In this document: one piece after another, positions 7,576 through 12,839 of the stretch
Numbering within the stretch: the first letter of the stretch is position 1
Layout of the letters: every line of letters starts with the position of its first letter
Virus genome (UHGV): UHGV-0349264
Direction: 5' to 3' (one strand)
Length of the DNA: 16,264 bases
Origin: a virus
Position numbers and translations under genes: made by a program
The notes under the pieces: model-generated
Seen by the model: the letters and a program-made list of their open reading frames with translations, nothing else
Told to the model about the DNA's origin: nothing
The model's database searches: none

Positions 7576-8393
7576 GCAATCCCCCTGTCTGCAAACTTCC
7601 CTTCCCGAACTCCCGTTAACGAATCTTCTCTCAGCAAGTAATCAAAATCAGCCGTCCAGCCCGTGTCGTTGTCTCCGAAGTAAAACGGCTTGGCCTGATG
7701 TACAAACGCCCTGACATACGCTCTGAAACCGTCCACGTTTGGCGTTTTCAGTTGTGGGATGATTTTCTTCAGGCGGCGTTTGCGTTTCTCGTTGACCGCA
7801 ACAGCGTGTGGAAGTCTGTCACCGACTTCGGTGTTGTAGGCGTTCAGGAAGGATTCGTAGTCGATTCGTTCTGCCTTGCGACGTTCAGGTTTAACCTGCC
7901 CATCGCCGCCCCCGTTAGGGGGTAAGGGGGTATTTGTATTTATTGTCTTTTGTATATTGTCTTTTGTGTTTAGCTGACTTGGCTTATACCCATTAGCCGA
8001 CTTGGCTAATGTTTTATTAGCTGTTTTAGCTAATGTTAAGCTGTCCTGGCTAATCCACTGCGAAACCACCTTGTTCACTCCGATTTTCACGCCATCAGCA
8101 ATGAGGAATTTACGCTCAATAAGCTGGCGCTTGGCAGCGCAAACATGAGTGTGATGAATACCTGTCATGGCTGCTATCTGCGTGTTTGTGAGTCGATCCA
8201 TCGGCTTATTGAATCCGTATGTCTTGCGCATGATAGCGAGCATCACCTTCAACTGCCGGACGGTTAAATCAGCCATCAGCAGACTGTCGGTAATCTCGTT
8301 AGCAACGCGCATGAAACCATCTTCGGTATCTGCCACGCGATGCTCCACGACCTCCAGTTGAGGCCTGTAATCAGCTAACTTAACGACGCCCAT
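7572..8393 (-). CDS. O: Replication initiator, lambda O-like (replisome organizer)
   Basis: 273-aa ORF immediately upstream of and overlapping the helicase. The N-terminal domain resembles phage O proteins, the central low-complexity linker is encoded by the iteron array, and the C-terminal domain is non-lambda. Confidence 0.85.
7928..8054 (-). repeat. Replication origin inside the O gene: four ~16-bp iterons plus adjacent AT-rich region
   Basis: Direct repeats AGCTGACTTGGCTTAT (7972), AGCCGACTTGGCTAAT (7995), AGCTGTTTTAGCTAAT (8019), AGCTGTCCTGGCTAAT (8039), followed in the O direction by an AT-rich tract (7928-7970, tatttgtatttattgtcttttgtatattgtcttttgtg). Confidence 0.65.
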
Positions 8394-9337: not shown

Positions 9338-9997
9338 ATGAAAATGAAATGGTATGAACTGGCTAGATCCAGAATGAAAGAGCTCGGCATAACTCAAGAG
9401 AAGTTAGCCGAAGAGCTAGGTATGACGCAGGGTGGAATTGGACACTGGTTGCGCGGATCTCGTCATCCATCTCTTAGTGATATTGGTGTGGTGTTTAAAT
9501 ACCTTGGTATTGATAACATATCATTCAACCACGACGGGACATTTTCACCTGTTGGCGAATACTCATCGGCCCCAGTTAAAAAACAATATGAGTACCCTGT
9601 TTTTTCTCATGTTCAGGCTGGGATGTTCTCTCCAGAACTCAGAACCTTTACCAAAGGTGATGCGGAGAGATTGGTAAGCACAACCAAAAAAGCCAGTGAC
9701 TCTGCATTCTGGCTTGAGGTTGAAGGTAACTCAATGACCGCACCAACAGGTTCCAAACCTAGTTTTCCTGACGGGATGTTAATTCTGGTTGACCCTGAGC
9801 AAGCTGTTGAGCCCGGCGATTTCTGCATAGCCAGACTTGGTGGTGATGAATTTACCTTCAAGAAACTGATCAGGGATAGCGGTCAGGTGTTTCTACAACC
9901 ACTAAACCCGCAATATCCAATGATCCCATGCAATGAGAGTTGTTCCGTTGTGGGGAAAGTTATCGCCAGCCAATGGCCTGAAGAGACGTTTGGGTAA
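9338..9997 (+). CDS. cI: CI-type prophage repressor (HTH N-terminal domain plus S24/LexA-like C-terminal domain)
   Basis: The C-terminal ~135 aa (..[85 protein letters not shown]) match lambda CI as recalled; the N-terminal ~85 aa do not. Start placed at ATG 9338 (or 9344) after RBS AAGGA; the track ORF begins further upstream at 9296. Confidence 0.9.
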
Positions 9998-10370
9998 AGA
10001 GGATAGATGGAGTTTAATGGCCATGAGTATCAAGCGGTCAAAAAGAAGTTCATCTATTCATTGAAAGCATAAGGCCATCTGAGTATATCCGTAATGATCT
10101 GGATATTGTCTATAACATCAATGACCGGACGATAGATATCGGTGAGCAGCGTCCTGTATGGCAGGGTGAGGCAGGTGAAAAAACGTCCTGCCATCAACAA
10201 GAATCAAGTGCATCCGCTCTCTGGACAGATGGAAAATTTATTGGATGCAAAAAGATATGAAATAACACCTGTATAGCACGGAGCTTTCTCTGACCGATGC
10301 ACTTGAAGTTGTTAGGGCTGACCCAGCCTGCTGTTTCTTTAGGTAAGAGAAAAGAGATTTAGGAGATGAA

Positions 10371-10398
10371 AGGTCGCAGAGGTGCGGCCTTTTTTATT
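10371..10398 (+). terminator. Intrinsic terminator downstream of cI
   Basis: AGGTCGCA-gagg-TGCGGCCT (8-bp stem including one G-U pair) followed by TTTTTTATT. Confidence 0.65.
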
Positions 10399-10437
10399 GA
10401 GAGTGGATCTTGAACGGAAATTCTCAAGACTTGAGTC

Positions 10438-10466
10438 TTGCATGCAAATCAATTCCTGGATAAACT
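10438..10466 (+). promoter_or_regulatory. Candidate sigma70 promoter for the 173-aa gene (-35 TTGCAT, 17-nt spacer, -10 TAAACT), overlapped by dyad-symmetric elements
   Basis: TTGCAT-gcaaatcaattcctgga-TAAACT about 33 nt upstream of the ATG. Overlapping palindromes CAAGACTtgAGTCTTG (10425-10440) and TCTTGA..TCAAGA (10408-10429). Confidence 0.45.
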
Positions 10467-10498
10467 CGATCTGAGTCAATAACTTAGAGAGAGAGCAA

Positions 10499-11020
10499 AT
10501 GGCAAAGTCAAACGTTAGCGTGCAGGCATTCAAGGACTTCCTTGAAGAGCTTATGTCGCTGAACATAATGAAGGAGGCCACCGCTCGAAATTTAAAAAAC
10601 TCATCCGCTCGCCTCTTAACGGTAGTCCAAGAAGAGGAAATGGGTGATGTTACTCAGCTTGATGTGAATGAGCTTGCCGAGCGATACATCAACGCAACTG
10701 AGCCGAAGCCTAGCGACAGCAGCATTACTGCATATAAAAGCCGCATGGAAAGTGCAATCAAAAAGTTTGTAGCTTTCCAGTCTGGTGAAGAAATCCCATA
10801 CACTCCGATTGACAAAGAATCCAGTGAGGAAAAAGATTTGACTGGCGAACCAACAAAAGTCGAAGGCAAGGCTAATGCACTTCATACCTATGATCTTCCA
10901 GTAGTTCTTCGACCTGAATCAGGGGTTACAGTAACGATTAAAGGCATTCCTAACGATATCACAAACGAAGAAGCCGAACGCATCTCTTCAATTCTGAAGG
11001 TTTACGTTCGGCCTCAATAA
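10499..11020 (+). CDS. Hypothetical 173-aa acidic protein in the cI-pL moron (rex) slot
   Basis: Clean ORF with no significant overlapping ORF of known function, its own promoter and upstream terminator, and an AG-rich RBS region. No motif I can recognise; hydrophilic, no TM segment. Confidence 0.75.
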   Translation: MAKSNVSVQAFKDFLEELMSLNIMKEATARNLKNSSARLLTVVQEEEMGDVTQLDVNELAERYINATEPKPSDSSITAYKSRMESAIKKFVAFQSGEEIPYTPIDKESSEEKDLTGEPTKVEGKANALHTYDLPVVLRPESGVTVTIKGIPNDITNEEAERISSILKVYVRPQ

Positions 11021-11193
11021 TGCAAAAGCATTCAGCACAATGTCCAACTCCCCAGTCCGACATTGATGCTGTTTAACCAGAGCCTCCAAAAGGAGCCCTT
11101 GTTAAGGTACACAATATTTGCGATGTAACCTTAGCGCGTCTGGTACATTTTTTCAAGCGGTTGTAGGGCTGCCGCCAATATGAGAAAACACAG

Positions 11194-11316
11194 ATGTCTA
11201 CATACAATTTGAATGACCAATTCGATCGAGAAGTTCATGTGAATGCCTATGAACGGATAAGGCATGGAAATCTTGAACATGTGTGTGAGCATTATCGCTC
11301 AAGGCCACACCGCTAA
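11194..11316 (+). CDS. Possible 40-aa ORF ending 5 nt before an intrinsic terminator
   Basis: Hand-translated MSTYNLNDQFDREVHVNAYERIRHGNLEHVCEHYRSRPHR. Weak RBS; it may be non-coding. Confidence 0.2.
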   Translation: MSTYNLNDQFDREVHVNAYERIRHGNLEHVCEHYRSRPHR

Positions 11317-11321
11317 TCATC

Positions 11322-11350
11322 AACCCGGCCTCCATGCCGGGTTTTCTTTT
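11322..11350 (+). terminator. Intrinsic terminator closing the moron transcription unit
   Basis: AACCCGGC-ctccat-GCCGGGTT followed by TTCTTTT. Confidence 0.6.
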
Positions 11351-11531
11351 CCTCTCGCCCCAAAAAAACACATAACCAATTGTATTTATTGGAAAATAAA
11401 TAGATACAACTCACTAAACAACGCAATTCTGATCTCTCCTTACATCGCCGAGGCAATACACCCACGCTAAAAAACAATACTATTAAATACAAAGCGTTGT
11501 AAAAAACCGCCCCGTTTTAGAACAAATTGTA

Positions 11532-11560
11532 TTGACCAAGTGGAGTACATATCGTACTAT
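11532..11560 (+). promoter_or_regulatory. Candidate pL promoter (-35 TTGACC, 17-nt spacer, -10 TACTAT) with overlapping operator
   Basis: TTGACC-aagtggagtacatatcg-TACTAT. The 15-mer AGTACATATCGTACT (11544-11558) matches the OR 15-mer at 13 of 15 positions and overlaps the -10. Confidence 0.5.
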
Positions 11561-12167: not shown

Positions 12168-12351
12168 TAAGAATCAATGGTGTGGACAATTCAAGCGATG
12201 CAATGGATGCAAGCTGCAATCGGAATGCATGGTTAAGCCTGAAGAAATGTTTCCTGTAATGGAAGATGGGAAATATGTCGATAAATGGGCAATACGAACG
12301 ACGGCAATGATTGCCAGAGAACTTGGTAAACAGAACAACAAGGCTGCCTGA
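12151..12351 (+). CDS. Small Cys-rich (zinc-ribbon-like) hypothetical protein
   Basis: 66-aa ORF with Cys spacing C-x5-C-x2-C-x5-C (WCGQFKRCNGCKLQSEC), lying in the early-left operon after N. Confidence 0.5.
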   Translation: MTTTIDKNQWCGQFKRCNGCKLQSECMVKPEEMFPVMEDGKYVDKWAIRTTAMIARELGKQNNKAA

Positions 12352-12378
12352 TGGTGGCCTTTATTTTTAAGGAGCTAT

Positions 12379-12621
12379 ATGAAAATTAAAACTATGGCAG
12401 CAAGCCCATTAAGCGGTCGTATTTTTCAAGGAACATTAAACACTGAAAAAGGAATGTGGGTAGGAAAGAAAGAAGATGTCACCGAACAAGCGATTAAGGC
12501 AGTAACTGAACACCTGATGATAAAAGACCGGAAATATGCATACGAAACGAATGATGGCAAATGGGTGATAATAATGCATCAACTGGTTGATGAATTACCA
12601 GAAGAGTTTATTGCTGATTAA
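12379..12621 (+). CDS. Hypothetical 80-aa protein
   Basis: Clean ORF with strong RBS AAGGAG 5 nt upstream. Function unknown. Confidence 0.65.
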   Translation: MKIKTMAASPLSGRIFQGTLNTEKGMWVGKKEDVTEQAIKAVTEHLMIKDRKYAYETNDGKWVIIMHQLVDELPEEFIAD

Positions 12622-12749: not shown

Positions 12750-12776
12750 GCCCTCCAGTGTGAGGGCCTTTTTATA
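12750..12776 (+). terminator. Intrinsic terminator within the pL operon (tL1-like position)
   Basis: GCCCTC-cagtgt-GAGGGC followed by CTTTTTATAT. Confidence 0.5.
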
Positions 12777-12839
12777 TGCATACCAATAACGCTTCACTTG
12801 AGGCGTTTTCGTTATGCAATCAAACAGAAGGAGCATCCT

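Follow-up and report, generated by a model that had tools for sequence, protein, structure and literature searches.

The locus between cI and pL in this phage raises the question of what its 173-aa protein does for the phage or the lysogen. The window, a 16,264-nucleotide stretch of viral DNA (UHGV virus genome UHGV-0349264), represents a VT2-Sakai/Sp5-type Stx phage immunity region and is 99.8% identical to VT2-Sakai/Sp5, Nil2, Stx2 phage II, 1717 and 2851. The stop codon of cI lies 1.5 kb from pL, and cI and N flank the region of the 173-aa gene, both on the same strand. The 980-bp unit containing the gene is present at ≥99% identity in 234 of 5,426 complete E. coli genomes, and a scan of species-representative genomes returned one locus only. 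A first-pass annotation of the window had regarded the gene as the best candidate for a previously undescribed exclusion or defence function. The gene itself is not new: its ORF is identical to H0093 of VT2-Sakai and ECs_1184 of Sakai, and as ECs1184, or ORF23 of Sp5, it has been reported as undeletable (PMC5155283) and as an RNA-binding candidate (PMC7618764). For four features described below we could not find an earlier account: the conserved RNA with its pseudoknot, the 40-aa gene that annotation has dropped, the mobile architecture in three parts, and the core-binding fold. The features of the region are as follows.

9344–9997, + strand: cI, with HTH_3 and Peptidase_S24 domains
10039–10340, + strand: decayed DUF3024 gene, 81–85% amino acid identity to SH2026Stx1 gp21, in two frames with an internal stop
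10368–10398, + strand: upstream intrinsic terminator; hairpin 10368–10393 with 11 pairs, −15.9 kcal/mol, z = −4.1, followed by a U-run
10425–10440, strand-neutral: candidate operator palindrome CAAGACT-TG-AGTCTTG, an inverted repeat overlapping the −35
10438–10466, + strand: predicted sigma70-like promoter; −35 TTGCAT at 10438–10443, 17-nt spacer, −10 TAAACT at 10461–10466
10499–11020, + strand: ORF of the 173-aa protein H0093/ECs1184/ORF23
11021–11193, + strand: structured RNA "type 2" (173 nt), from fold and covariation
11033–11071, + strand: hairpin H1 of the type 2 RNA
11076–11081 with 11139–11144, + strand: closing helix of the type 2 RNA
11083–11093, + strand: H2 of the type 2 RNA
11100–11136, + strand: H3 of the type 2 RNA
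11157–11160 with 11172–11175, + strand: 3' hairpin of the type 2 RNA
11094–11098 (AGCCC) with 11166–11170 (GGGCU), + strand: pseudoknot of the type 2 RNA
11194–11316, + strand: 40-aa His/Cys-rich protein H0092, MSTYNLNDQFDREVHVNAYERIRHGNLEHVCEHYRSRPHR
11322–11350, + strand: downstream intrinsic terminator and right end of the cassette; hairpin 11322–11343 with U-tract, −14.3 kcal/mol, z = −5.3
about 11484–11560: OL/pL (pL at 11532–11560), as annotated in AP000422
3' of the cassette, + strand: N gene (PF25694)

With high confidence, positions ~10425–11350 constitute one autonomous, horizontally mobile prophage cassette, and with equally high confidence its order is a palindrome-overlapped promoter, the 173-aa protein, a pseudoknotted RNA of ~170 nt, a 40-aa microprotein of metal-binding type and a terminator. 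The RNA begins directly after the stop codon of the 173-aa gene. Among related loci read with their downstream sequence, the order of protein, 148–174 nt spacer, small ORF and terminator is kept down to 33% protein identity, with one exception, a metagenomic contig. In one distant homologue, hicA-hicB lie directly 3', where the RNA and small ORF normally sit. The first-pass annotation had described a self-contained unit of upstream terminator, promoter, ORF and downstream terminator, and all four were recovered within a few bases of where it had placed them. Its view of the unit as autonomous holds, but the unit is not a single gene, since 11021–11321 carries a conserved structured RNA and a second gene rather than an empty 3' UTR.

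The boundaries of the cassette were examined individually. The upstream terminator, which a simple consensus terminator scan did not pick up, ends the transcript of cI and the DUF3024 remnant, insulating the cassette from pRM read-through, and is itself outside the mobile unit. It is kept in Salmonella copies of the same slot and is missing 5' of the Pseudescherichia vulneris copy, which is located after Q. The TTGCAT/TAAACT promoter was not listed by a generic promoter scan, and TTGCAT-17-TAAACT is unconvincing by consensus alone because promoter-like sites occur in the region at chance frequency (8 found versus 7.8 expected in shuffles). Support for this predicted promoter is comparative. 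The −10 recurs as TAAACT, TAGACT or TAGAAT at a similar distance from the start codon in relatives down to ~40% protein identity, and DNA homology to the P. vulneris prophage copy begins at the −35 and ends just past the terminator. The inverted repeat at 10425–10440 is a candidate operator. The palindromes over the −35 differ among protein clades, with AAGACTnnAGTCTTG-like palindromes at the same place in relatives of 73–83% identity, and 12-bp GATC-rich inverted repeats over their own −35 instead in relatives of ~40% identity. At the right end, a hairpin terminator of the AACCCGGC...GCCGGGTT type closes almost every related cassette; the sole Rfam match in the window lies over its terminator and is a weak one to GadY, at 20 bits against a gathering score of 45.

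Related cassettes occur in at least five settings: the cI–N slot, the nin region after the replication genes, the slot between Q and the lysis genes (the stx slot), antisense among tail genes, and among chromosomal core genes. The one chromosomal copy has mpl on one side and darP/pmbA on the other, with no phage genes in view. Recurrence in the cI–N slot, named by the first-pass annotation as a point to check, was confirmed among the 41 loci of close relatives (≥54% identity) with enough flank, 40 of which have a cI-type repressor upstream and 37 of which have N downstream. Divergent copies (35–40% identity) also occupy this slot in SH2026Stx1 and L072/L073. Protein copies that are ≥99% identical have at least four different cI alleles and five different N alleles as neighbours. 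In the cI–N slot of Stx2 phage 86 (Stx2-86), the same DUF3024 gene is followed by a RuvC-like gene and stk instead of the cassette. The pairing of one protein with several cI and N alleles, together with stk in the slot of phage 86, indicates that the cassette does not co-evolve with the lysogeny switch as one of its parts. It has its own predicted promoter and its own terminator, with a conserved −10 position and homology that ends at the −35 and at the terminator; and, since its genome position varies and it is present in some phages and replaced by stk in another, the unit is a moron in the strict sense. The earlier description of an autonomous, moron-like transcription unit in the cI–pL slot is thereby upheld.

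Homologues of the 173-aa protein numbered 44 across Enterobacterales in a direct search and 653 representatives of 50%-identity clusters in a profile search; the best 150 of these 653 are nearly all 160–210 aa long and match across both domains. All homologues whose source name was checked are called "hypothetical protein". An AlphaFold2 model built from a 140-sequence alignment (pLDDT 89) comprises a core-binding (SAM-like) four-helix domain at residues 8–95, a variable linker of low model confidence at residues 100–128, and a beta-hairpin plus helix at residues 130–169, which contains the family motif P..LR....V.I.GLP.DLT..EA.RI. According to this model, the N-terminal domain has the tyrosine-recombinase core-binding fold, with 5–15% identity to any solved core-binding domain, while the C-terminal motif, in our own reading, may correspond to the strand and the first helix of the ribbon-helix-helix fold. 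The catalytic domain PF00589 gave no match in the protein or in 140 relatives. With a core-binding domain present, the R-K-H-R-H/W-Y catalytic domain absent, and only a beta-hairpin and one helix in residues 129–173, the protein is not a recombinase.

Searches of Pfam, NCBIfam, PADLOC and PHROGs with the 173-aa protein returned only PHROGs of unknown function and sub-threshold Phage_int_SAM matches, while PDB sequence and profile searches gave nothing meaningful, and Foldseek against BFVD gave nothing at E ≤ 0.001. Neither the domain searches nor the AlphaFold2 model contained an enzymatic or membrane domain. The first-pass annotation could not place the protein in any family, which remains true of Pfam, NCBIfam and PADLOC, but its N-terminal core-binding fold can be placed. 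The acidity that it noted is real for the window protein (pI 4.85, with all three regions at pI 4.5–5.6) but clade-specific: the family median pI is 9.1, and the family is basic overall because most members carry a basic linker.

The RNA downstream of the protein gene is supported by both folding energy and covariation. The window RNA has a minimum free energy of −52.2 kcal/mol (z = −3.9). In the type 2 alignment of seven sequences, 94% of cells are paired, compared with 27–43% when the 3' partners are slid; there are 11 compensatory pairs, the observed score was reached by 0 of 500 shuffles, and the covariance model found an unseeded copy at 154 bits. Type 1, with 20 sequences, is 89.9% paired against 35–42% slid, with 21 compensatory pairs including the pseudoknot helix, and again 0 of 500 shuffles reached the observed score. 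Type 3, from SH2026Stx1, Erwinia and others, has the same pseudoknot with the compensations UUACC/GGUAA, GAACC/GGUUC and AAACC/GGUUU. Because G-U pairs are frequent, the structure can be assigned to the + strand. One topology is found in all three types: one or two 5' hairpins are followed by a closing helix, inside which lie the 5' strand of the pseudoknot and an inner hairpin that ends in UAGCG(G), and then by a 3' hairpin whose loop is the second pseudoknot strand. The UAGCG(G) element is common to the three types, types 1 and 2 have a U-rich stretch with UCAAG ahead of the 3' hairpin, and within type 2 both UAGCG and UCAAG are invariant. The type 1 covariance model misses the type 2 RNA of the window and the reverse search also fails, so the assignment of the three types to one putative family rests on shared topology and short motifs, without a statistical match. 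No Rfam 15 family matched the spacer of the window or those of nine related loci, and a permissive scan of one type 1 copy was empty as well.

The RNA and the protein are closely linked. An RNA-only search, consisting of a 14-mer scan of viral contigs and a covariance-model filter, recovered 17 RNAs, and 17 of 17 lie 3–4 nt beyond a homologue of the protein, which makes protein and RNA an obligate pair within the data searched. Conservation of the RNA exceeds that of the protein. Several other readings of this segment were considered and rejected. A frameshift or read-through signal at the stop of the 173-aa ORF was discarded since the A-rich run there is not conserved, and an invertase-driven switch of hairpin H1 was discarded since the apical loop alone flips, as any palindrome would. 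The known EHEC prophage sRNAs (EcOnc/AsxR/AgvB, StxS, the Pas sRNAs and HnrS) lie elsewhere in prophages.

The third component, H0092, is annotated in AP000422 and missing from the current Sakai RefSeq annotation. It matches phrog_21154 (E = 5e-8), and the search for its homologues is limited by the fact that 40-aa ORFs are seldom called by gene callers. Its pN/pS is 0.07–0.16 in comparison with copies attached to proteins of 79% and 37% identity. Three unrelated small-ORF families occupy this position: the H0092 type of 40–44 aa, a 47-aa CxxC...CGC type and a 57-aa Arg-rich type. The 47-aa and 57-aa ORFs that replace H0092 at other loci are Cys-rich and basic, and the microproteins are in general hydrophilic, basic and Cys/His-rich. 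Purifying selection is evident in all three families (pN/pS 0.07–0.34), with synonymous sites near saturation. PDB sequence searches with the three microproteins found nothing, and the sole indication from Pfam was a weak match of the 47-aa type to a treble-clef zinc finger (E = 0.001). Proteins that are 73–83% identical to one another pair with all three small-ORF families and with two RNA sequence types.

Two published studies bear on the function of the gene. Mondal et al. (2016, PMC5155283), who deleted Sp5 genes in frame and without markers in a K-12 lysogen, did not succeed with ORF23 (ECs1184) or ORF21 (ECs1180). The authors read the failure for ORF23 as the gene being "required for stable maintenance of lysogeny" (PMC5155283); it is a negative result from one study, for a reason not known to its authors (PMC5155283). 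In a 2025 study of the Sakai RNA-associated proteome by TRAPP, ECs1184 just missed significance with an FDR of 0.065 (PMC7618764), and its PNK crosslinking signal was no better than that of the GFP control (PMC7618764). The proteome result suggests that the 173-aa protein is made in lysogen cultures.

From these data we infer, as a plausible reading that stops short of probable, a self-regulating cassette of the addiction or abortive type, with the protein restraining the RNA, the small protein or both. The whole unit would be transcribed as a single mRNA in the lysogen. The 173-aa protein, a putative catalytically dead relative of core-binding-domain proteins with a ribbon-like beta-beta-alpha domain, would bind nucleic acid, either its own palindromic operator, the adjacent RNA or both, and this binding would limit how far the downstream RNA and microprotein are expressed or active. 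Loss of the protein alone would then free a harmful downstream component, which would explain why ECs1184 could not be deleted although sister phages live without the whole cassette. As a toxin-antitoxin-like module, the cassette may stabilise the prophage or trigger abortive infection. Since sister phages lack the cassette while the protein gene could not be removed, the cause of non-deletability is best sought within the cassette; non-deletability argues against a dispensable accessory gene and toward an addiction-type property, whether or not this serves defence.

Counted in favour of the addiction-type cassette are the co-linearity of protein, RNA and small ORF, the linkage and covariation of the RNA, selection on the small ORF, the autonomous ends of the block, the core-binding fold without a catalytic domain, the undeletable ECs1184 and the proteome FDR of 0.065. 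The clade-specific −35 palindromes, the mobility and the hicA-hicB neighbour fit such a module as well. The acidic window protein (pI 4.5–5.6) would be unusual for a nucleic-acid binder and counts against it, as do the PNK signal at the level of the GFP control and a deletion failure that comes from a single study. No cassette component matches a toxin, antitoxin or defence family in Pfam, NCBIfam, PADLOC or PDB sequence searches, and PADLOC-DB 2.0 gave 0 families for both proteins at E ≤ 1. Cognate pairing of the type II kind is not seen either, as proteins that are 73–83% identical are joined to H0092-type, 47-aa or 57-aa ORFs. Such near-identical proteins with unrelated microproteins argue against the specific protein-protein neutralisation of classical type II systems, which the module, with no family match and mismatched pairing, does not fit. 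Control, if any, more likely acts on DNA or on the conserved RNA than through a protein-protein interface.

The main rival to the addiction-type cassette is a ribonucleoprotein regulator, which we judge unlikely. Here the protein and the adjacent RNA would form a particle acting in trans on host or phage nucleic acids, giving a quiescent prophage or a reprogrammed host, with the microprotein as cofactor, and deletion would be lethal through prophage induction rather than a toxin. Such a particle would account for the strict adjacency of protein and RNA, both in the RNA-only search (17 of 17) and at all protein-anchored loci, and UAGCG(G) in the three RNA types and UCAAG in types 1 and 2 could be binding determinants. 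The basic linker of most family members, the presence of ECs1184 in the RNA-associated proteome at an FDR of 0.065 (PMC7618764) and the reading of the deletion authors, that the gene is required for stable lysogeny (PMC5155283), point the same way, against which stands a PNK assay signal at background (PMC7618764). No target is evident. Moreover, a role in the lysogeny circuit of a given phage is hard to see for a cassette that is also found among tail genes, downstream of Q and, in one case, outside any prophage, and that sister phages do without. The function foreseen by the first-pass annotation, a lysogen-expressed superinfection-exclusion or anti-phage defence gene, is in our estimate decidedly unlikely; the 173-aa protein would be the effector, the small ORF would play an accessory part, and the RNA would serve only as a structured 5' UTR or to stabilise the transcript. 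Lambda rexAB occupies the same cI-adjacent slot, which is also used by stk in Stx2 phage 86. The moron anatomy, the use of several moron slots and the TRAPP detection of ECs1184 in Sakai cultures, which narrowly missed significance (FDR 0.065), agree with a defence gene, but there is no PADLOC match and no enzymatic or membrane domain, a pure exclusion gene is not expected to be undeletable, and an RNA better conserved than the protein makes a passive UTR unlikely. The analysis turned up nothing that speaks specifically for exclusion or defence. An addiction-type module could itself act as an abortive-infection device.

Very improbable, in our view, is a type I-like arrangement, in which the 173-nt RNA would be the self-inhibitory leader of a toxic microprotein mRNA (compare hok, zorO and tisB) opposed by an antisense RNA antitoxin; the 173-aa protein would then be either a neighbour with no part in the system or a regulator of transcription. 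A long, highly structured, covarying leader before a very small ORF and then a strong terminator would suit it, and in the predicted fold, by our own reading, the U-rich segment upstream of UCAAG pairs with a purine-rich stretch before the H0092 start. The microproteins, however, are hydrophilic, basic and Cys/His-rich and not membrane peptides; no conserved antisense promoter was seen, with the scan giving weak consensus matches at chance frequency; and the RNA was never found without the protein in the RNA-only search (17 of 17).

The cassette was compared with the closest known systems. The nearest known relative of the N-terminal domain of the 173-aa protein is the core-binding (SAM-like) domain of tyrosine recombinases such as lambda Int, XerC/D and IntI. 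The recombinase-derived SPbeta-type phage repressors MrpR and SroF keep a degenerate catalytic domain, whereas the 173-aa protein has none; it differs from all of these proteins in its C-terminus, a 45-residue beta-hairpin and helix, and in a gene tied to an RNA. With lambda rexAB and the stk of 933W and Stx2-86 the cassette shares the slot, the strand of cI and N and the possession of its own terminators, but it has no sequence or fold relation to them, is not confined to the slot and has no known exclusion phenotype. In P1/P7 immI (c4 RNA-icd-ant) and the Mu Com-mom leader, a neighbouring function is controlled by a structured RNA together with a very small protein (zinc-binding). The likeness of these two to the cassette is conceptual only, and the latter differs from immI in its gene order and in having neither an Rfam C4 match nor a downstream antirepressor. 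Prophage type II/III toxin-antitoxin modules resemble the cassette in being compact autonomous operons that have a palindrome at the promoter and move among unrelated sites, and the first gene of the cassette was reported unremovable (PMC5155283); as in type III, the RNA is an obligatory part. The cassette differs from them in having no toxin-antitoxin family homology, no tandem RNA repeats and a structured spacer of 150–175 nt between the ORFs, and its putative toxin would be a protein of 40–57 aa, drawn from three unrelated families that pair with the same protein.

A broader proposal is possible but on the whole doubtful: the cassette may be a three-component system of a class not described before, in which a core-binding-domain-only protein and a dedicated pseudoknotted RNA form a particle and work with an interchangeable zinc-binding microprotein. 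A DNA-recognition module of recombinases would then have taken on the RNA-dependent control of cell fate or of phage infection, mobile among enterobacterial prophages including the Stx2 phage of O157:H7 Sakai. Should the protein be confirmed to work with the RNA, the recombinase core-binding fold would have gained a new use; should the cassette be an addiction or abortive-infection module, it would matter for how stably Stx prophages are kept and how they spread. Annotation of the immunity region of Sp5/VT2-Sakai, the Shiga toxin 2 phage of a reference outbreak strain, goes back 25 years; beside cI this region holds a conserved RNA without an Rfam entry and a 40-aa gene dropped from the current RefSeq. 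ECs1184, the RNA and H0092 together apparently form a unit that cannot be broken without killing the lysogen, and the published puzzle of the undeletable ORF23 becomes directly testable.

A minor observation concerns the DNA between cI and the upstream terminator, where the DUF3024 remnant at 10039–10340 had been overlooked by the first-pass annotation.

The cassette is separated from cI by a strong terminator at 10368-10398, and pRM transcripts therefore probably end at this site. In the annotation of the VT2-Sakai record AP000422, the hairpin at 11322-11350 is designated the terminator of the pRM transcript. Features of the window considered alongside the 173-aa protein gene (ECs1184) are as follows.

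10039-10340, + strand: degenerate DUF3024 gene, in the interval from cI to the upstream terminator
11194-11316 (NC_002695 1,255,7xx), + strand: H0092, a 40-aa gene annotated in AP000422 (2000)
12379-12621, + strand: ECs1180, 80 aa, DUF7446, phrog_1578, directly downstream of N

The DUF3024 remnant matches gp21 of SH2026Stx1 in two different frames, with 85% and 81% amino acid identity. Its reading frame is broken by a frameshift at about 10180 and by an in-frame stop at about 10263. An intact DUF3024 gene is present in Stx2 phage 86, AU6Stx1 and Proteus prophages.

H0092 is absent from the current Sakai RefSeq annotation and was not counted as an ORF in the study of Sp5 gene deletions in a K-12 lysogen (PMC5155283), and the ECs1184 deletions would therefore have kept it. 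Apart from ECs1184, ECs1180 is the one early gene of Sp5 for which deletion is reported to have failed (PMC5155283), and it may therefore constitute a second self-contained, lysogen-expressed unit. ECs1180 is flanked by terminator-like hairpins, at 12340-12361 on one side and at 12750-12767 and 12788-12807 on the other.

Comparison of the 5' hairpin H1 of the spacer RNA (11033-11071 in the window) revealed two forms of its apical part that are exact reverse complements of each other, on a stem that is the same in both. The form CCAACTCCCCAGTCCG occurs in the window, L034 and the Pseudescherichia vulneris prophage, and CGGACTGGGGAGTTGG in loci L042, L069 and L074, while the apical part of the Salmonella copies L012 and L037, CAGACTGGGGAGTTGG, differs from CGGACTGGGGAGTTGG at the first two bases only. 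The two forms look like the outcome of palindrome flipping, and the loop sequence of H1 seems to be unimportant.

Among homologues of the 173-aa protein with ~40% identity, GATC-rich perfect inverted repeats of 12 bp (GATTCATCGATC ... GATCGATGAATC) overlap the promoters (L047 ~7850-7960, L055, L061 and L065). These repeats may be operators or Dam/SeqA-sensitive sites. A distant homologue of 188 aa on a metagenome contig (L176, 1087-2106) is followed 40 nt on by hicA and hicB, which take the place of the RNA and small ORF. Locus L177 (3001-3860) contains a complete cassette, comprising a 174-aa protein, a type 3 RNA, a 45-aa CxxC ORF and a terminator. Its neighbours are chromosomal core genes, mpl together with a DUF4432 gene at one end and darP with pmbA at the other, and no phage genes were found within 3 kb of the cassette. 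Separately, the stretch 9714-9797 (+ strand) of L009, inside the pL operon of a cassette-bearing Salmonella prophage, matches the Rfam family sRNA-Xcc1 (83 bits, E = 2e-13).
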